Source: Candidatus Yonathbacteria bacterium
Lineage (GTDB): Bacteria > Patescibacteriota > Minisyncoccia > Phycocordibacterales > JACNGX01
Direction: 5' to 3'
Assembly: GCA_013334825.1 (NCBI GenBank)
Contig: JAAXWR010000002.1
Location: 34,025 to 98,024, forward strand
Length of the DNA: 64,000 nucleotides
Positions 13,722 through 61,163 of this stretch are shown here, piece by piece. The notes beneath the pieces were generated by a model. The model was given only the letters and a program-made list of their open reading frames with translations, searched no databases and was not told where the DNA came from. Position 1 is the stretch's first letter. Each line of letters starts with the position of its first letter. A program made the translations under genes and the position numbers.

Positions 13722-13821
13722 CCAGCTCCACTTTCATAATAAACACACATGCTATGATAGATTTTTTATCCGAGACGTGAGTATTGTTTATAGATAAAGT
13801 CTTTTATGAAAGTGGGGCTGG
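13722..13821. repeat. 100-nt palindromic element with 16-nt terminal inverted repeats CCAGCTCCACTTTCAT / ATGAAAGTGGGGCTGG (copy 1 of 2)
   Basis: The same termini and the same 100-nt length recur at 58244-58343 with an unrelated interior. The termini resemble tmRNA/tRNA acceptor ends (…CCAGCUCCAC / GGGGCUGG…). Confidence 0.6.
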
Positions 13822-13834
13822 ATGCTCCTGGGCG

Positions 13835-13872
13835 CCGAGCACCACTTTTATAACGATAAAAGTGGTGCTCGG
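13835..13872. repeat. Hairpin repeat CCGAGCACCACTTTT-N8-AAAAGTGGTGCTCGG (family member 1 of 3)
   Basis: Near-identical stems recur at 59017-59052 and 60411-60447. All are adjacent to tRNA or tmRNA sequences. Confidence 0.6.
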
Positions 13873-13873
13873 T

Positions 13874-14186
13874 TCGATACCCCCACGCGAGCCGAGCAGT
13901 CGGCTCGCTCATCTCCACACGCAAAACAACAAACCACCCTTTCGGGTGGGTTGTTTTGGTGTGGAGATGGGGGGTATTGGTCAGGAGTCCGTGAAAATCA
14001 TAGTCGCTTTGCTCCTTGATTTTCTACGGCTCACGACCCTGGCTCGGCGACAAGCACTCGCACGCAAGCGTGCTCGTCTTGTGTACCGCCTCCGCCTTTC
14101 GATACCCCCAGCGAAAAGCTCGCTTTTCGCTTCACATCTCCAATCCATAAAAAAGAAACACCTCTTTAAAGAGGCGCTTCTTTTTT
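13874..14186. repeat. Array of tmRNA-terminus-like modules, each followed by an A-run/hairpin/T-run terminator. Modules: 13874-13921 + terminator 13922-13956; 3'-end copy 13957-13974; 14095-14136 + terminator 14150-14186
   Basis: The motif 'TTCGATACCCCC-A-[short hairpin]-CATCTCCA' occurs twice (its reverse complement is GGAGATG-[hairpin]-GGGGGTATCGAA). A second copy 'CCCCCCATCTCCACACCA' of the authentic tmRNA 3' end 'CCCCCCATCTCCACCA' lies 230 nt downstream of the real one. Confidence 0.5.
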
Positions 14187-14187
14187 A

Positions 14188-14605
14188 TGGTGGAGATGGG
14201 GGGTATCGAACCCCCGTCCAAACGTGGTTTGCGAGTGGGTCTACGCGATGTAGGTTGTTTTTTGGATTTGAACCGATTGTTTTTGAAACAAACAAAACGA
14301 CAATCAGTCGAGTTTCGTCGATTCTCGAGCGTCTGATGAAACGGTCAGATGCTCCAGTCCGATGAGTATGACACCCTCTCAGACATATCGGACGTCAGAA
14401 GAGAGGACGCCGCTTAGGCGAATCGAGACACGAGGTCTTGATTAGGCGAAAGCGGGAGCGAAGGACGGTATTCCAAAGTAGGAAGAGGCAATACCTTTTG
14501 CTTTAAGAGACAAGTTCGCACTTATCGTTTGTGACGGTTTTACGAGTCATCACAGCTCGATCGCGCGCACGGGCAGAGACACGCCTGTCGAAGCCGATCA
14601 TCCCC
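14188..14605 (-). ncRNA. ssrA: tmRNA (ssrA), standard one-piece, 418 nt
   Basis: Minus-strand 5' end 'GGGGAUGAUCGGCUUCGACAGGCG' matches the conserved tmRNA 5' acceptor strand and GGnUUCGAC element. The 3' end 'GGACGGGGGUUCGAUACCCCCCAUCUCCACCA' has a T-arm, a 7-nt acceptor strand complementary to the 5' end (one G·U pair) and an encoded CCA, followed by a terminator. The gene lies immediately downstream of and co-oriented with smpB. A candidate tag ORF after '…CUCUUAAA' is GCA AAA GGU … GCC UAA, giving AKGIASSYFGIPSFAPAFA*. The tag is low confidence. Confidence 0.7.
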
Positions 14606-40312: not shown

Positions 40313-40669
40313 ATGCAGTACGATCTTGAAAACAGAACAAAAATTTTTAGCAAGGAGGTGATTATGTTCTTAAAACGTTTACAGAAGGATGAAATAAATA
40401 GACATATCATTTCTCAACTTGTTCGTTCGGCGACTAGTGTCGGTGCGAATTATTGTGAAGCAAATGGTGCTAGTTCACAGAGAGATTTCAAACATAAAAT
40501 ATTTATCTGTAGAAAGGAAATTCAAGAAACAAAATATCGGTTAGAATTAATTGCAGAATCGAATAAAGACGAAAAAGATAGTGTTGAAAAATTATGGAAA
40601 GAAGCTCATGAATTAACTCTCATTTTTAATAAAATATCAACAACACTAAGGGAACGCACTGAAAAATAA
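40313..40669 (+). CDS. Four-helix-bundle protein (TIGR02436; the '23S rRNA intervening-sequence protein' family)
   Basis: '…EINRHIISQLVRSATSVGANYCEANGASSQRDFKHKIFICRKEIQETKYRLELI…' is the family signature. Confidence 0.8.
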   Translation: MQYDLENRTKIFSKEVIMFLKRLQKDEINRHIISQLVRSATSVGANYCEANGASSQRDFKHKIFICRKEIQETKYRLELIAESNKDEKDSVEKLWKEAHELTLIFNKISTTLRERTEK

Positions 40670-57929: not shown

Positions 57930-58000
57930 AGGGGGGTAGAGAAGTAGTATCTCGGGAGGCTCATAACCTCCAGACCTAGGTGCAATTCCTGGCCCCCCTA
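57930..58000 (+). tRNA. Candidate tRNA with CAT anticodon (Met/fMet/Ile2-lysidine class), atypical T-loop
   Basis: Fold: acceptor AGGGGGG/CCCCCCT, D-stem GAGA/TCTC, anticodon stem GGAGG/CCTCC with loop CTCATAA, T-stem CTAGG/CCTGG with loop TGCAATT, discriminator A. A strong terminator follows at 58008-58045. Confidence 0.45.
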
Positions 58001-58167
58001 CACCCAAACTCAAAAACGACACTATTTGTGTCGTTTTTGAGTTTTAGGGCGCAAGTTGTCTTTTTCCATAATTCATTATTCATAATTCACATCCCGTTTT
58101 CTTGATTCGAATAATGTATTAAGTAAAAGTTGAGTCTTCTTGGGAAAAGTGATATTCTGTAGTCCGT

Positions 58168-58244
58168 TGCCGGGGTAGCTCAGTTGGTTAGAGCATAGCA
58201 CTCATAAAGCTAAGGTCGTGGGTTCGATCCCCACCCCCGGCACC
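58168..58244 (+). tRNA. tRNA-Met (CAT) elongator-type or tRNA-Ile2 (lysidine)
   Basis: Cloverleaf: acceptor GCCGGGG/CCCCGGC, D-arm GCTC-AGTTGGTTA-GAGC, anticodon loop CTCATAA, T-arm GTGGG-TTCGATC-CCCAC, discriminator A. A G1-C72 pair argues against the initiator type. Confidence 0.85.
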
Positions 58245-58343
58245 CAGCTCCACTTTCATGGATGACGCATGTAGTATGCTTGCGTTTGTTGTTGCGACTA
58301 TAATTTTTGGTGATTTATCTTCTGTTATGAAAGTGGGGCTGGG
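58244..58343. repeat. 100-nt palindromic element, copy 2, with termini CCAGCTCCACTTTCAT / ATGAAAGTGGGGCTGG, abutting the tRNA-Met 3' end
   Basis: The termini and the length are identical to 13722-13821. The interior is unrelated. Confidence 0.6.
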
Positions 58344-58603
58344 CGAAGTGGGGCAGAGCATACGTTTATATAAGTATTTTTTCCGCAATATTCCCCCAGC
58401 ACTATGTACCACGTGGATGCACAGCAGGCCACGTGGTTGCACGGCACACTACGTGAGATGCCGGGCAACTGCGTAGTATTTGTGTAAGTTCCGCGTGTTT
58501 CTGCGTTCATTCCGCATCGCTTCCGCGTCATGCAAAACTTGCGTTTCTCCTCATAATATAGTACCCTATGGTGCATCGTCCCAAGTGGGCGAAACACTAC
58601 ATT

Positions 58604-58762
58604 ATGTCACAAGATAGACTCATCAAATTGACCTGCACCGAGTGCAAACGCGTCAACTATTGGTCCAGTAAAAACAAAAAGACCAATACTGACAAGCTTG
58701 AACTCAACAAATACTGCAAGTGGTGCAATAAACAGACGAAGCATAAGGAAGCGAAGAAATAA
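58604..58762 (+). CDS. rpmG: Ribosomal protein L33
   Basis: '[52 protein letters not shown]' is an L33 zinc ribbon. I take the start at the internal ATG of the longer ORF. Confidence 0.8.
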
Positions 58763-58798
58763 TCCGTATATCACGGAGATTCTTCGTACAAGTCCCAT

Positions 58799-58875
58799 GC
58801 GGCCGTGGTGTAGCCCGGTTAACACGTCGCTCTGTCACAGCGAAGATCGCCGGTTCAAATCCGGTCGGCCGCGCA
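58799..58875 (+). tRNA. tRNA-Asp (GTC)
   Basis: Acceptor GCGGCCG/CGGCCGC, D-arm GTGT-…-ACAC, anticodon stem TCGCT/AGCGA with loop CTGTCAC, T-arm GCCGG-TTCAAAT-CCGGT, discriminator G. A terminator follows at 58876-58917. Confidence 0.85.
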
Positions 58876-58917
58876 TAACAAGAAAGGGCTGGCTTTTGCC
58901 AGCCCTTTCTTGTTATG

Positions 58918-59125
58918 TCTATCGCGAGCCGACTGGATTTGAACACGTAGGGGGTCGGGGGCGGCGGAACGCCCCCGTGAAGGAGGTTACGTGGAACCGT
59001 GGGTTCTACGAGCGCACCGAGCACCACTTTCATAAATGAAAGTGGTGCTCGGGAGCAGTGAATATTCCGGTCGGCCGCGCATAACAAAAAGAGGTTGGCT
59101 TTTGCCAATCTCTTTTTGTGTATAC
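58918..59125. repeat. tRNA-fragment mosaic and att-like scar: an inverted tRNA-Asp-like T-arm/acceptor fragment (58920-58945), a GC hairpin, a CCGAGCACCACTTTCAT-AA-ATGAAAGTGGTGCTCGG hairpin (59017-59052), then a direct duplicate of the tRNA-Asp 3' end plus terminator (59064-59122)
   Basis: 'TCCGGTCGGCCGCGCATAACAAgAAAGggcTGGCTTTTGCCAgccCTTTCTTGTTAT' at 58860-58917 recurs as 'TCCGGTCGGCCGCGCATAACAAaAAGAggtTGGCTTTTGCCAatcTCTTTTTGT' at 59066-59122. Confidence 0.6.
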
Positions 59126-59165
59126 TGATTTTCCACAAACATACGAGTGATGTATACTTATCAGT

Positions 59166-60227
59166 ATGTTGAACCTCAAAGACATTACTCTTCTTGGTAT
59201 TGACTGTGTTGATTTGGACCGTCTCAAACTTGCGGCAGATATTTCATGCAAGGATATTTCTTTTGGTGCGGTAAAATTGCTTTCCTCAATTCCCGATGAT
59301 GATTCTCGGGTTGTTCCTATTCGTCCTATTAGTTCATCTAAAGAGTATTCAGATTTTTGTATCAAAGAGATGCACAGATATGTTGATACGAAATATGTTC
59401 TTGTTTTTCAGTATGACGGTTTTGTCTTGAATCCAGACGCCTGGTCCGACACGTTTCTTGCGTATGATTATATTGGTGCTCCATGGTATCATCTCGGGGA
59501 CCTTCATGTCGGAAACGGGGGTTTTAGTTTGCGAAGCAAGCGCCTTCTTTTGTGGTTGGCAGAAAATTATACACTTCCTAAGGTGCGTATTCATCCTGAA
59601 GATGTCTTTATTGCGCATTTTGCAAGACCTTTTCTTGAGAAAGAAGGTATGGTGTTTGCGCCTGAAGATGTTGCATTGACATTCGCATGTGAGGGTAATG
59701 AACGTACTGTTGTTTGGAATGGTCAATTTGGGTTTCATGGAATAGCATATACCGATATTTCAAATTGGCTTTCACAACATGTTGAGTACCAAAAGCAATT
59801 ATCATATCCACTTGATGATTATGCGACACTGATGAAAAAATATCCCGTATATACCGGACACGTGCATACATTTCGTTTTGGAACATATGATTTAGAAAAT
59901 TATAAGCGTCTTTCGGAAGGGGTGAAGCGGTATGAGATAAGGGTTACCAAAGAAAAGCATCATGACTGGTCGCGTGTGCACGAAGGAGACACGATTGTGT
60001 TCAAGCGGTCTGGAGTTTCTTTTGCTACGTTTCCCATTCCCGCATTTGAGAGAACGGTCTCTCGTCTGGAACGTTTCTCGGGATTGCGTGAGTTAAAGAA
60101 TAAGTATCCTGATTTATCGATTACACCACCTTTTGATTTAATTCCGCGGCGCATGCGTTTTCTGGTAAGATATATGCCGACAATGTTTTTACCCAAACAT
60201 GAAGAATATACGGTTTTTTGGTTTTAA
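59166..60227 (+). CDS. Hypothetical protein with an uncharacterised N-terminal domain (possibly nucleotide-diphospho-sugar-transferase-like) and a C-terminal ASCH-like beta-barrel
   Basis: C-terminal 'EGVKRYEIRVTKEKHH…EGDTIVFKRSG' fits the ASCH GxKxxExR motif. The N-terminal 'YDYIGAPW…GNGGFSLRSKR' block has no secure assignment. The gene is flanked by tRNA genes. Confidence 0.5.
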   Translation: MLNLKDITLLGIDCVDLDRLKLAADISCKDISFGAVKLLSSIPDDDSRVVPIRPISSSKEYSDFCIKEMHRYVDTKYVLVFQYDGFVLNPDAWSDTFLAYDYIGAPWYHLGDLHVGNGGFSLRSKRLLLWLAENYTLPKVRIHPEDVFIAHFARPFLEKEGMVFAPEDVALTFACEGNERTVVWNGQFGFHGIAYTDISNWLSQHVEYQKQLSYPLDDYATLMKKYPVYTGHVHTFRFGTYDLENYKRLSEGVKRYEIRVTKEKHHDWSRVHEGDTIVFKRSGVSFATFPIPAFERTVSRLERFSGLRELKNKYPDLSITPPFDLIPRRMRFLVRYMPTMFLPKHEEYTVFWF

Positions 60228-60282
60228 ATAGTAAGAAAGAAAAGTTGATAATATCTCTCAAATATAGTACGCTGATACGCAA

Positions 60283-60358
60283 GCCAAGATAGCTCAGTTG
60301 GTAGAGCACATCCATGGTAAGGATGAGGTCTCGGGTTCGATCCCCGATCTTGGCTCCA
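60283..60358 (+). tRNA. tRNA-Thr (GGT)
   Basis: Acceptor GCCAAGA/TCTTGGC, anticodon stem CATCC/GGATG with loop ATGGTAA, T-arm TCGGG-TTCGATC-CCCGA, discriminator T, CCA encoded. Confidence 0.9.
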
Positions 60359-60410
60359 GCAGGAGCCAAGAACACAACATGCATTTATGCATGTTGTGTA
60401 GGGGATCGAA

Positions 60411-60447
60411 CCGAGCACCACTTTTGCCATTGCAAAAGTGGTGCTCG
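60411..60447. repeat. Hairpin repeat CCGAGCACCACTTTTGC-CAT-TGCAAAAGTGGTGCTCG (family member 3), preceded by GGGGATCGAA and palindromic hairpins
   Basis: The same stem as at 13835-13872 and 59017-59052. The preceding 'GGGGATCGAACCGAGCACC' mirrors 'GGGGGTATCGAACCGAGCACC' in the tmRNA-scar region. Confidence 0.6.
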
Positions 60448-60560
60448 ACATCCAGGAGTACTTGGTGAAATGTGAGCTCTGCGAAACTTTCCTCGTGATT
60501 CTTGCTTCTCGTCGTTTTTCATTCTTGATTCTTAATTCGTACTTCTTAATTCTCGTCTGC

Positions 60561-60633
60561 GCCACCTTAGCTCAGTTGGTAGAGCGATCGCTTCGTAAGC
60601 GATAGGTCCCCAGTTCAATCCTGGGAGGTGGCT
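60561..60633 (+). tRNA. tRNA-Thr (CGT)
   Basis: Acceptor GCCACCT/AGGTGGC, D-arm GCTC-AGTTGGTA-GAGC, anticodon stem ATCGC/GCGAT with loop TTCGTAA, T-arm CCCAG-TTCAATC-CTGGG. Confidence 0.85.
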
Positions 60634-61128
60634 CTCGAAAATAATTTATATTTCTATATGTTTGTCACTGGTCAACGATATCGAATTTCACGAAAACTTA
60701 AGTGGTATTTTTTGTTGAAAACATTTCTTATCCTTATGTTACTTTCTTTATTTATAGCGATTTTTTCAGAGGAAGATACATATACTATAATTACGTCATT
60801 TATTCCGTTTGCACTGTTTATATGGATTTATTTAGCGATAAAGTATCGATATGTTTTTCTTACAATAGAAAAGGATGCACTCATTATAAATTCGGGAATA
60901 ATATTAAAACGTTCAATGTTAATTCCTTTCGATACTATTCAAAATATCAATGACATACGAGGCCCTGTATCTTCGATGTTTAATTTTGTGAAAGTAAGAA
61001 TATGGACAGCGTCTCCTTCTCAAATATATATTAAAAATGGAAATAGTAATAATCGCCCAAATGGGGTTTTGTGGCTTGAAACAAAAGATGTTGAAGATTT
61101 AAGACACATACTTTCGTTACACAAATAA
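60628..61128 (+). CDS. Membrane protein with a bacterial PH (bPH_2/YdbS-YdbT-like) domain
   Basis: Two N-terminal TM helices, then '…IEKDALIINSGIILKRSMLIPFDTIQNINDIRGPV…VKVRIWTAS' typical of bPH_2. Confidence 0.5.
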   Translation: MALENNLYFYMFVTGQRYRISRKLKWYFLLKTFLILMLLSLFIAIFSEEDTYTIITSFIPFALFIWIYLAIKYRYVFLTIEKDALIINSGIILKRSMLIPFDTIQNINDIRGPVSSMFNFVKVRIWTASPSQIYIKNGNSNNRPNGVLWLETKDVEDLRHILSLHK

Positions 61129-61163
61129 CAAGTGGTTCTCTCACACGTCAGTCCCATGCTGGC

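Follow-up and report, generated by a model that had tools for sequence, protein, structure and literature searches.

A repeat of the tRNA-Asp 3′ end in Candidatus Yonathbacteria bounds a conserved, gene-free unit of a candidate new family located behind tRNA and tmRNA genes

Results

The repeated tRNA-Asp 3′ end encloses a folded unit

The window, i.e., the whole 64,000-nt stretch of DNA analysed here, out of a 389-kb contig, carries a cluster of five tRNA genes, on all of which ARAGORN and Rfam agree (Rfam scores of 59-71 bits). The order is tRNA(CAT) (57930-58001), tRNA-Met(CAT) (58168-58246), rpmG (encoding L33; 58568-58762, Pfam E 1e-18), tRNA-Asp(GTC) (58799-58874, + strand), the ORF of a 353-aa protein (59166-60227, + strand), tRNA-Thr(GGT), with its CCA encoded (60283-60358, + strand), and tRNA-Thr(CGT) (60561-60634). 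This is the order of tRNAs and rpmG given in a first-pass annotation of the same DNA, whose tRNA-Asp call was also right.

As that annotation had proposed, the 3′ end of tRNA-Asp is duplicated together with the terminator that follows it. The first copy (X0) comprises the last 15 nt of the tRNA (58860-58874) and 8 nt beyond, and the second (X1, the direct repeat or DR) lies at 59066-59088 (+ strand). Both are identical over their first 22 nt, TCCGGTCGGCCGCGCATAACAA, a sequence that occurs exactly twice in the window against 0.01 occurrences expected, and 58860-58913 and 59066-59119 share 83% identity across 54 nt. Each copy runs into a terminator-like hairpin, T1 (58874-58917, + strand), with a perfect 20-bp stem and a U-rich 3′ side, and T2 (59080-59122, + strand). 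The differences between T1 and T2 (compared over 59080-59119) are mostly paired changes, so that both still fold. T2 matches the most distal terminator of the relatives, and is therefore probably the ancestral terminator of tRNA-Asp.

Between the repeats, T1 is followed by an inverted copy (IR, 58923-58944, + strand) of the tRNA-Asp T-loop, the 3′ strand of the T-stem and the 3′ strand of the acceptor stem, which carries one bulged A and one G·U and is 94% complementary to tRNA-Asp 58853-58869 over positions 58928-58944. T1 thereby forms the centre of a long palindrome made by the tRNA-Asp 3′ end and its inverted copy. Three internal hairpins come next. The stem sequence of the first (58957-58976, + strand) varies among relatives with its pairing retained, four pairs bearing compensatory changes; the second, GUGGAACC GUG GGUUCUAC, together with a GGAGG-like stretch (58983-59009, + strand), is kept in sequence in the five of five Asp-type units compared; and the third, CCGAGCACCACTTTCAT..ATGAAAGTGGTGCTCGG, is a REP-like palindrome with a perfect 17-bp stem (59017-59052, + strand), the position of which is taken by a sequence-unrelated hairpin in the relative L150 and by a long-loop version in unit 2 of L003. 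The DR pairs with the IR and closes the unit. The inverted fragment and the palindrome had both been noticed before, and the duplication is indeed att-like, the direct repeat being placed as at an att site. The first-pass annotation went further and regarded the segment as an element reduced to about 200 bp; this is not supported, as a unit of ~200 bp is the normal form, which recurs at tRNA-Thr, tRNA-Met and tmRNA genes.

The same layout recurs behind other tRNA genes and the tmRNA gene

Units of this kind are short (120-320 nt each), gene-free and strongly folded, and they lie directly 3′ of several tRNA genes and of the tmRNA gene. Each comprises four parts. The first is a hairpin, terminator-like or otherwise; the second is the 3′-terminal 20-25 nt of the neighbouring t(m)RNA in inverted form, in many cases interrupted between the acceptor part and the T part by a 9-bp hairpin with a CUGC loop; the third consists of two to four further hairpins; and the fourth repeats the 3′-terminal 14-31 nt of that t(m)RNA in direct orientation. 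Pairing of the two copies gives a multi-hairpin domain, closed by a helix whose sequence is that of the acceptor and T stems of the tRNA itself. In the window this layout was found behind tRNA-Asp, tRNA-Thr(GGT) and, twice, the tmRNA gene, and in relatives behind tRNA-Met, Asp and Thr, with homologues of the Asp unit behind tRNA-Asp down to 74% PrfB identity. At tRNA-Gln of L016 there is a direct copy only, and the proximal inverted copy is absent. A copy of the gene's own last 14 nt within 600 nt was observed downstream of 25 of 132 t(m)RNA genes and upstream of none, and an inverted T-loop copy downstream of 13 and upstream of 3 of 97 non-redundant genes. When the units were compared with Rfam 15, no family reached the gathering score; only tRNA and tmRNA pass, and the rest stay far below.

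The inverted copy of the tRNA-Thr(GGT) 3′ end (60362-60413, + strand) matches covariance model R1 and consists of an acceptor part (60362-60371) and a T part (60401-60413) with a hairpin (60372-60399) between them; this unit lacks the distal direct repeat. A second copy of the REP-like palindrome (60411-60448, + strand) occupies the place that hairpin hpA has in relatives. The hairpin element previously noted after this tRNA is present and belongs to the same palindrome family as 59017-59052. In the case of the tmRNA gene (14188-14605, - strand), the repeats that lie downstream, i.e., at lower coordinates, are copied from its 3′ end. Unit 1 (13962-14187, - strand) comprises a terminator (14146-14187), an inverted copy with a hairpin inside it (14098-14145), a pair of cargo hairpins (13986-14097) and a direct copy of the tmRNA 3′ end (13962-13985); unit 2 (13836-13961, - strand), which is without a distal repeat, comprises a terminator (13922-13961), an inverted copy split by a CUGC-loop hairpin (13872-13921) and the REP-like palindrome (13836-13871).

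The arm of this palindrome has seven matches in the window with one mismatch allowed (0.25 expected), six of which are the arms of three hairpins, and four intergenic copies were found in two other Patescibacteria MAGs, away from any tRNA. A long-loop relative, CCCAGCTCCACTTTCAT-N67-ATGAAAGTGGGGCTGGG (58243-58343, + strand), lies directly after tRNA-Met(CAT), and its second copy, CCAGCTCCACTTTCAT..ATGAAAGTGGGGCTGG (13722-13822), at the far end of the tmRNA array. The first-pass annotation had named, as a ground for giving up its own reading, a second copy that belonged to a functional structured RNA or terminator shared by unrelated loci. Half of this was found: it is the palindrome that occurs at unrelated loci, and the second copy lies in a conserved folded element.

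Fold, strand and conservation of the units

The fold of the Asp-type unit is maintained through compensatory changes. With the predicted partners 95.4% of the cells are paired, against 38-49% with the partners slid, seven pairs show compensatory changes, and the covariation score was reached by none of 500 shuffles; in hairpin hp0 the changes are compensatory at 8 of 9 pairs, each of these covariation tests resting on only five to nine distinct sequences. The tRNA-sense strand gave the better fold in 14 of 15 units, and G·U pairs numbered 77 in the sense folds against 36 in the antisense folds, an excess of which the G-rich composition of the sense strand could be a partial cause. Furthermore, CUGC-loop hairpins are nearly restricted to the position at which the inverted copy is split, and always have the tRNA sense. 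The arms follow their tRNA: in L020 and L033, where the T-loop of tRNA-Thr differs, the inverted copy bears the matching change, and in L020 the direct copy bears it too.

Identity at four-fold sites between the lineages of the window and of L014 is only 40-44%, whereas the whole Thr unit is 88% identical between L003 and L014 and its 89-nt core 96-98%, a constraint above synonymous sites that was measured on Thr-type units, not on Asp units. Orthologous Thr units are thus conserved far above synonymous sites, and are therefore unlike a dead scar; on these figures, a dead remnant drifting neutrally was rejected. Compensatory changes in a conserved fold and constraint above the neutral level, i.e., the generic marks of a structured RNA, are both found.

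In units of the Asp, Met1 and tmRNA types, a single long quasi-palindrome, with the terminator loop at its centre, runs from the tRNA end through the terminator to the inverted copy, as might be left if the units were functionless products of DNA metabolism at strong terminator hairpins. The terminator palindrome would then have been extended into the tRNA end by fold-back or template-switch replication, giving rise to the inverted copy, slippage or unequal crossing-over would have given the direct repeats and the arrays, and quasi-palindrome correction would match the arms to the tRNA, a matching that requires no selection. The identical tandem copies of L033 (3 × 133 nt) and L048 (2 × 171 nt) are consistent with such an origin. 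However, the cargo hairpins lie outside the tRNA palindrome and are 88-98% conserved where synonymous sites are saturated, and the internal modules (the CUGC hairpin, and hpA with its invariant CGAG) occupy the same relative positions behind different tRNAs, which is not expected from independent local accidents. We consider this origin unlikely. The reading that we prefer, with a probability of roughly 45%, is that the repeat at 58860-59122 bounds a member of a family of conserved, gene-free, structured tRNA-tail units, presumably acting as RNA.

Genes inserted at tRNA 3′ ends

An ORFan bPH_2 gene (GC 0.29) lies in the window at the 3′ end of tRNA-Thr(CGT), between GGTGGCTCTC and AGTGGTTCTC, and is missing from the close relatives L003/L004. 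At tRNA-Asp of L034 there are two units; behind each lie an AT-rich accessory gene, RibD_C/DHFR-like in one case, and a repeat ending in CCGCGCA. In L023, Fic and ParE genes lie between units. As the bPH_2 insertion and the gene-bearing arrays of L034 and L023 show, tRNA 3′ ends are real insertion points in this lineage. In addition, a 152-aa gene of L150 begins exactly at the inner end of an inverted copy.

All these genes, including that of L150, speak for the main rival of an RNA, in which the units would be miniature integrative cassettes that lack an integrase, or the attachment sites of cassettes. Small circles or single strands in folded form would be inserted at the 3′ ends of t(m)RNA genes by a recombinase whose gene lies elsewhere, so that the direct repeat would be the crossover product and the gene-free units empty cassettes; the tRNA end, the hairpin and the inverted copy would be a folded att site that mimics the double-stranded end of a tRNA gene. 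Every complete unit is bounded by a direct repeat of the tRNA 3′ end, always downstream, the units form tandem arrays of which the copy number varies between strains of 90-96% protein identity, and the ancestral terminator is the distal one in every array, as expected if insertions adjoin the tRNA; the conserved, strand-biased structure is compatible with a folded-DNA site too. Against it, no recombinase gene adjoins the arrays, either by motif or among the called genes, and searches of phage, plasmid and viral collections gave no match to the units. Units resemble their orthologues far more closely than their paralogues (62-72% identity inside one genome), the opposite of what ongoing transposition or cassette turnover would leave. 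Moreover, the T-loop portion of the inverted copy is complementary to the tRNA and not to the stretch of the element that precedes the direct repeat, and circles of 120-300 bp would be very small for double-strand recombination. A cassette is thus a possible explanation, to which we give less credit than to a family of structured, RNA-like tRNA-tail units.

The 353-aa protein and the absence of an island

The first-pass annotation had explained the repeat as the footprint of an integrase, with the 353-aa gene as possible island cargo. In its full form, i.e., a tyrosine-integrase prophage or island in tRNA-Asp, deleted to about 200 bp, with this gene as a leftover, that explanation can draw on the resemblance of the direct repeat to an att site and on recombinase-bearing elements that use tRNA genes in relatives, where a large serine recombinase and a lone Cas1 lie directly after tRNA-Gln(CTG). 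The occupied island that was to be looked for in relatives did not appear, neither island nor integrase being found at 38 metagenomic loci with the same tRNA-Asp end or in syntenic relatives, and no integrase-bearing island was found at any of the 132 t(m)RNA genes. A crude regular expression detected no tyrosine-recombinase motif in any locus, and none of the 132 genes has a repeat of its 3′ end more than 600 nt away. In addition, the unit has structured and conserved homologues in other lineages, with the constraint measured on Thr-type units, and equivalents behind further t(m)RNA genes, so that the integrase footprint was not borne out.

We regard the 353-aa gene as a neighbour of the Asp unit. 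It is widespread in Patescibacteria, where it occurs between rpoC and dnaG as well as in further housekeeping contexts, its GC content is outside the ten lowest of the 55 genes, and no tRNA-end repeat lies on its far side; all of this goes against cargo. However, the content of its slot differs among relatives, and the gene may therefore still be cargo. Taken together, a remnant of a prophage or island is already largely refuted, and we hold it to be very improbable.

The protein itself, which is conserved in Patescibacteria, joins a GT-A domain to a putative ASCH-like one. The N-terminal domain matches DUF5672 (PF18922), of GT-A glycosyltransferase fold, above the Pfam cut-off. As for the ASCH-like C-terminal domain proposed earlier, the motif GVKRYEIR (GxKxxExR) is there and some homologues are named ASCH by JGI, but the domain matched neither a Pfam family at E<=10 nor any PDB sequence. 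Its structural model (pLDDT 91) best matches PH0355, PF0470 and a Z. mobilis ASCH domain with probabilities of 0.96-0.99, TM scores of 0.42-0.57 and E-values of only 0.007-0.03, which points weakly to an ASCH-like domain at the level of the fold.

Discussion

The architecture of the units, their recurrence, the covariation-backed fold, the constraint, the co-change with the tRNA and the changes in copy number are best read as those of a new family of tRNA-tail units, located immediately behind tRNA and tmRNA genes of Candidatus Yonathbacteria and of Patescibacteria related to it. The unit would act as a single-stranded nucleic acid of tRNA sense. The putative RNA would most likely be read through from the tRNA gene, its tRNA-like closing helix may give it tRNA-type ends or stability, and arrays may grow and shrink through recombination between direct repeats. 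Units of the Asp, Met1 and tmRNA types are separated from the tRNA by a strong terminator-like hairpin, and promoter/terminator scans, which were uninformative, gave no convincing promoter for the units, so that transcription of these three types would need read-through. Arms that copy the adjacent tRNA and a directly repeated tRNA end are not accounted for by an RNA role alone. Both features are typical of site-specific insertion and, like the accessory genes between the units of L034 and L023, they count against an RNA.

Comparison with known systems

Casposons are Cas1-dependent transposons that insert at tRNA 3′ ends. As with casposon inserts, a copy of the tRNA 3′ end flanks the units on either side, the 14-16 nt of the Asp units matching casposon target duplications, which are of 14-15 bp, and a lone Cas1 gene lies beside tRNA-Gln in relatives (only in L155-L158). 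However, the two ends of the insert do not form terminal inverted repeats, neither Cas1 nor a polymerase was found in the units or the window, and the repeat length of the units ranges from 14 to 31 nt. Despite the duplication-like repeat, we therefore do not class the units as casposons.

The palindrome CCGAGCACCACTTT..AAAGTGGTGCTCGG and its long-loop form resemble REP, REPIN, BIME and MITE elements in being short, intergenic and multi-copy, also away from tRNAs. Judged on the 59017-59052 hairpin, the palindrome has these properties without being bound to one locus; here it is only one exchangeable module of the unit, and the tRNA-matched arms have no counterpart in REP elements.

Crossover by integrases reportedly takes place at particular sublocations in tRNA genes. 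As at tyrosine-integrase att sites, the direct repeat runs from inside the T-loop to the end of the t(m)RNA, the tRNA gene is intact, repeats lie on the 3′ side only and accretion is in tandem. In contrast to integrated elements, the units are of 120-320 nt with neither an integrase nor any other gene inside, they always have the inverted copy of the tRNA end, and their interior is conserved and structured, not decaying. Tycheposons of Prochlorococcus reportedly occur, with integrase-less satellites, in tandem at few tRNA genes with partial tRNA repeats between them, and their content, as here, varies among strains. They are kilobase-sized and carry genes and recombinases, unlike the units, and we know of no description in them of an inverted tRNA-end copy or of a conserved hairpin set.

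Integron attC and CTX-phage attP(+) are recombination sites made of folded single strands. The likeness lies in an imperfect inverted repeat that forms a hairpin mimicking a double-stranded target, in structure conserved above sequence, in strand bias and, for attC, in cassette arrays that include gene-free cassettes and toxin-antitoxin genes; as at an attC-type boundary, the tRNA end (or the direct repeat), the hairpin and the inverted copy fold together. On the other hand, no IntI or Xer-type gene is linked to the arrays, and the core sites GTTRRRY / RYYYAAC, read from the sequence, are absent in attC order, the only GTT-type motifs of the units being the T-loop and its complement, in reverse order relative to attC. 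The targets, furthermore, are various t(m)RNA ends with matching arms, and orthologous units are conserved while paralogues have diverged.

tRNA-like modules and 3′ trailer RNAs are represented by the mascRNA of MALAT1 and by E. coli 3′ETS-leuZ. They differ from the units in that the latter are tandemly repeated and copy the 3′ strand of the neighbouring tRNA exactly, plus its complement, with cargo in place of the T-loop. What they would have in common with the tRNA-tail units is a non-coding RNA beside, or ending in, a helix that imitates the acceptor/T domain of a tRNA, to which RNase P, RNase Z or the CCA-adding enzyme could be recruited.

A repeat, an inverted copy and a palindrome follow the tRNA-Asp gene

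The five tRNA genes of the cluster were called concordantly by ARAGORN and Rfam, in the order that the first-pass annotation had proposed, and the rpmG (L33) gene and the ORF of the 353-aa protein (59166-60227) were also borne out. Both programs also call a tmRNA gene, which lies in another part of the window. The first tRNA(CAT) (57930-58001) is 72 nt long and has an unusual T-loop (GGTGCAATTCCTGG), and the ~165 nt upstream of rpmG (58355-58520), which are missing in the close relatives L003 and L004, contain 20-nt tandem repeats with CCACGTGG palindromes that could be binding sites.

The 3′ end of tRNA-Asp had been described as duplicated, and indeed TCCGGTCGGCCGCGCATAACAA, i.e., the last 15 nt of the gene and the next 7 nt, occurs exactly twice, at 58860 and at 59066 (2 exact copies in the window versus 0.01 expected by chance). 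A long terminator-like hairpin follows each copy, and the differences between the two hairpins are mainly paired substitutions, so that both still fold. Between the copies lie a 22-nt inverted tRNA-Asp fragment (58923-58944), which comprises the T-loop, the T-stem and the acceptor 3′ strand, and a palindromic element (59017-59052), which is the last of three hairpins there. The distal end of the unit reads ...GAGCAGTGAATAT + TCCGGTCGGCCGCG, and its proximal hairpin reads CATAACAAGAAAGGG... Hence, the initial observation was correct in every detail. Its reading as the ~200-bp remnant of an island found no support: neither an island nor an integrase was found, and the structure is a recurrent, conserved and structured non-coding unit, whose arms are copies of the 3′ end of the t(m)RNA gene next to it and which forms strain-variable tandem arrays. 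Asp-type units, i.e., those that follow tRNA-Asp, also carry a GGAGG stretch with a GTG or ATG 4-5 bases on and a short ORF beginning MEP(W/R/C)V (window 58983-59039, and L003, L014 and L020). The Shine-Dalgarno-like stretch is itself conserved, but the ORF was rejected as a gene: no two relatives agree in its length (9-43 codons) and end point, so that it is probably not coding, and the conserved part falls on a hairpin.

The same layout recurs behind other t(m)RNA genes

With one mismatch allowed, the palindrome arm GAGCACCACTTT has 7 matches in the window versus 0.25 expected, six of which are the arms of three hairpins: those in the Asp unit, after tRNA-Thr(GGT), and ~320 nt past the tmRNA 3′ end. 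An inverted copy of the 3′ end of tRNA-Thr(GGT) itself, split by a hairpin into acceptor and T parts, is located at 60362-60413. The tmRNA array (13836-14187) consists of a terminator, a split inverted copy, two hairpins and a direct copy, after which come another terminator and another split inverted copy. Directly 3′ of tRNA-Met(CAT) (58168-58246) there is a long-loop relative of the palindrome, and the same element closes the tmRNA array. The inverted and direct copies each match their own preceding t(m)RNA rather than a common sequence. The folded element is found after t(m)RNA genes of at least four kinds, namely tRNA-Asp, tRNA-Thr, tRNA-Met and tmRNA.

The PrfB sequence of the window is the same as in an NCBI MAG of Candidatus Yonathbacteria bacterium, and an exact match to a protein of this organism came from SRR11449211 and SRR11449212. 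Syntenic loci were gathered by searching for homologues of two proteins, PrfB and the 353-aa protein, and by scanning metagenomes for the final 29 nt of tRNA-Asp. The relatives nearest to the window are L003, L004, L048 and L050 (90-96% protein identity), followed by L150 (PrfB 87%), by L014, L024 and L151-154 (PrfB 77%, GatA 82%), by L020 and L155-158 (PrfB 74%), and by many further relatives at 62% or less. Close relatives differ in unit copy number. Behind tRNA-Asp, the window has one unit, L003 two, and L150 one complete and one truncated; behind tRNA-Thr(GGT), the window has one, L003 two and L048 three, two of them identical; and behind the first tRNA(CAT), the window has none, L003 one and L150 two. 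In addition, three identical 133-nt units lie 3′ of a tRNA-Met in L033, and about 30 of the 38 metagenomic loci with an identical tRNA-Asp end are without a unit. A copy of the last 14 nt was found within 600 nt downstream of 25 of 132 t(m)RNA genes, upstream of none, and at a greater distance than 600 nt in none of the 132. Of 97 non-redundant genes, 13 have an inverted T-loop copy 36-79 nt downstream, whereas 3 have one upstream.

The units fold, covary and favor the tRNA-sense strand

When folded, the inverted and direct copies of every complete unit form a closing helix around two to four hairpins. For the Asp type we aligned five distinct units (the one in the window, two from L003, and those of L014 and L020), for which RNAalifold predicted 48 pairs; 95.4% of the alignment cells were paired, versus 38-49% when the partners were slid. 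Compensatory double changes were observed at seven pairs, and the covariation score was reached by 0 of 500 shuffles. In the third hairpin G:C, C:G and A:U were all seen at one position, and in L150 a hairpin of unrelated sequence takes its place. The inverted copy of the Thr, Met1 and tmRNA types is divided into its two parts by a 9-bp hairpin (hp0), which has a CUGC tetraloop and compensatory changes in 8 of its 9 pairs. Next comes a second hairpin (hpA), which is closed by a GGC/GCC stem and contains a CGAG that is invariant; a K-turn in the hpA internal loop was considered and discarded, because the consensus was not fitted. A search of both strands of 411 kb revealed ten distinct CUGC-loop hairpins whose stem is 7 bp or longer; for at least seven of these, a t(m)RNA gene of the same orientation lies just upstream. 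Furthermore, a covariance model of both hairpins gave 19 and then 9 matches, every one of them within such unit arrays. Passive growth of a palindrome fits the units poorly.

The tRNA-sense strand gave the better fold in 14 of 15 units. G.U pairs numbered 77 on this strand versus 36 on the opposite one, and the per-pair tables of the Asp alignment hold 19 G.U cells versus 6 A.C cells (which are G.U on the other strand); as the sense strand is G-rich, this bias is suggestive, not decisive. The inverted copy, which spans the whole T-loop, pairs with the tRNA at least as well as with the direct repeat, which begins mid-T-loop. A reading of the units as minus-strand tRNA-like genes or tRNA pseudogenes was rejected: ARAGORN and Rfam called none, and the inverted copy loses the T-arm pairing.

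Orthologous units are more alike than paralogous ones

Four-fold synonymous sites are 40-44% identical between the lineages of the window and of L014, i.e., essentially saturated. Even so, L003 and L014 share 88% identity over the whole Thr unit; for its 89-nt core the figure is 96-98% among L003, L150 and L014, and 78% against L020. Units behind different tRNAs of the same genome are 62-72% alike. Orthologous units are therefore far more alike than paralogous ones, which points to a long residence at each locus under purifying selection; neither a recent spread nor a decaying scar fits this pattern. The tRNA-Thr T-loop itself varies (TTCAAAC in L020, TTCAATC in L033), with the matching change in the inverted copy and, in L020, also in the direct copy. 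The same comparison bears on the main rival explanation, which takes the units for cassettes without an integrase, or for attachment sites, that are recombined in trans via a folded mimic of the tRNA-gene end, since that explanation predicts similarity among paralogues, not among orthologues.

Insertions at tRNA 3′ ends

In the Yonathbacteria lineage, tRNA 3′ ends receive insertions. A 166-aa bPH_2 ORFan (60628-61143), whose GC content of 0.29 is the lowest of the 55 genes in the window (mean 0.435, sd 0.045), sits between tRNA-Thr(CGT) and its terminator, flanked by GGTGGCTCTC and AGTGGTTCTC; it is missing in L003 and L004, and its sole database match is itself. In L034 (whole locus, 1766 nt) two units follow tRNA-Asp, each succeeded by an AT-rich gene and a repeat ending CCGCGCA; one of these accessory genes is RibD_C/DHFR-like and the other encodes an AT-rich membrane protein. 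In L023 (6500-9233) the genes for Fic, a ParE toxin and a small partner are interleaved with the units of a tRNA(CAT). Directly 3′ of tRNA-Gln(CTG) there is a large serine recombinase with Resolvase, Recombinase and Zn ribbon domains in L152 (15828-17243), L153 (15797-17326) and L154 (15828-17243), which is missing in L151, and at the same place a lone Cas1 in L155 (15629-16642) and also in L156-L158, near which no Cas2 was called. This tRNA gene may be in use by an element of the casposon type or of another kind.

Such gene-bearing examples, as well as the repeat, the inverted copy and the arrays, are accounted for if the units are cassettes or attachment sites, but there is no recombinase to point to. 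The genes called in the relatives placed none next to a unit array, and no tyrosine-recombinase box motif was detected by regex in six frames of all loci, a crude scan that is not proof of absence. Within the available flanks, no further repeat was found at a distance that could mark the far end of a larger island. A classical decayed prophage fits poorly: viral scans with the Asp cargo, with the Asp pattern of tRNA end, hairpin and inverted copy, and with the Thr palindrome gave no matches, and blastn of the units against phage and plasmid records returned nothing relevant. A loose viral scan with the hpA motif gave 98 matches, which were judged to be chance or coding matches. Rfam, run with gathering and with permissive E-values on the window regions and L003, reported only tRNA and tmRNA, and no account of such units was found in the literature that we searched. 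The gene content of the window was judged from translations; the product of the gene at 40313-40669, which has the second-lowest GC content in the window (0.31), we take by eye to resemble the four-helix-bundle proteins of 23S rRNA intervening sequences.

The 353-aa protein between the Asp array and tRNA-Thr(GGT)

The 353-aa protein matches DUF5672 (Pfam, E 8.8e-22). Its C-terminal part had been called ASCH-like. The motif GVKRYEIR is present, and the C-terminal 132 residues, modelled alone (pLDDT 91), best match PH0355, PF0470 and a Zymomonas ASCH domain with a probability of 0.96-0.99, but with a TM score of only 0.42-0.57 and an E-value of 0.007-0.03; Pfam and PDB sequence searches did not match ASCH. 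The designation is thus plausible, although its support is weak. Patescibacteria have many full-length homologues, whose genes are flanked by rpoC and dnaG, follow a tRNA-Tyr gene, or lie in other housekeeping surroundings. In L005 (876-2096, a relative at 67% identity) the DUF5672/ASCH-like fusion gene lies 70 nt past tRNA-Tyr, a second case at a tRNA 3′ end. The GC content of the 353-aa gene is outside the ten lowest of the 55 genes. What lies between the Asp array and tRNA-Thr(GGT) differs: it is this gene in the window and in L003, a different, 152-aa gene in L150, whose start is the exact inner end of a second inverted copy, and no gene in L020 and L155. This variation among relatives makes it possible that the 353-aa gene was acquired by insertion.

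The palindrome is not the tRNA-specific part

The stem sequence of the palindrome, CCGAGCACCACTTT(T)..AAAGTGGTGCTCGG, is conserved across unrelated Patescibacteria MAGs, with copies at 13836-13871, 59017-59052 and 60411-60448 of the window, and in L010 (6995-7028), L011 (2203-2239), L012 (3991-4024) and L013 (5787-5816). In those MAGs it stands alone after ordinary genes (e.g., directly 3′ of an rpsG-like gene in L013), and has no U-tract. A scan of the genome collection found only four intergenic copies, in two other MAGs and none of them near a tRNA, which indicates that the palindrome is not the tRNA-specific part. It behaves like a REP-type element or a protein-binding hairpin. A long-loop version (CCAGCTCCACTTTCAT, a 67-80-nt loop, ATGAAAGTGGGGCTGG) is present at 58243-58343 and 13722-13822 of the window and in L003 (3770-3877); it looks like a tiny inverted-repeat element, of which the short palindromes could be a collapsed form.

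Interpretation and comparison with known systems

Taken together, sequence constraint, covariation, strand bias and a constant loop orientation favor an element that functions as a single strand in tRNA sense, most likely as an RNA made by read-through from the tRNA gene. Its closing helix reproduces the acceptor and T stems of the neighboring tRNA, and could confer tRNA-type processing or stability, while the arrays would change via recombination between repeats. This reading is weakened by the terminators in front of units of the Asp, Met1 and tmRNA types, and by the direct repeat, which an RNA role does not itself explain. More broadly, we tentatively assign a chance of roughly one in three to a new system of the Yonathbacteria lineage, in which structured modules have arms "programmed" with a particular t(m)RNA 3′ end and serve either as trailer RNAs that mimic a tRNA acceptor or as integron-like attachment sites for gene capture, with a recombinase in trans, folded tRNA-end mimics and cassette arrays 3′ of many t(m)RNA genes.

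Partial tRNA repeats are routinely taken as integrase scars, whereas the repeat described here is part of a conserved folded element; on either reading, automatic island finders that use tRNA-fragment repeats would mis-call these loci. Patescibacteria have tiny genomes with little spare DNA, and to our knowledge the Candidate Phyla Radiation has few known regulatory RNAs. As RNAs, the units would represent a new tRNA-linked structured RNA family in this radiation. If they are recombination sites, they would show how such reduced genomes take up single accessory genes (toxin-antitoxin, Fic, DHFR-like, ORFans) at tRNA ends when the element itself has no integrase.

By the defining tests of each known family that can be tested, the units fall outside it, and we regard them as a novel form of tRNA-linked repeat element whose class is uncertain. 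They match no Rfam family, and differ from casposons in having neither Cas1 nor terminal inverted repeats. They have the tRNA-end repeat in common with integrase att sites and tycheposon arrays, but differ from integrase islands in that no integrase was found. With attC and CTX attP they share a hairpin-forming inverted repeat, although they are without the IntI and the core sites of integron attC. One exchangeable module is similar to REP elements, and the tRNA-like helix recalls tRNA-like processing modules.
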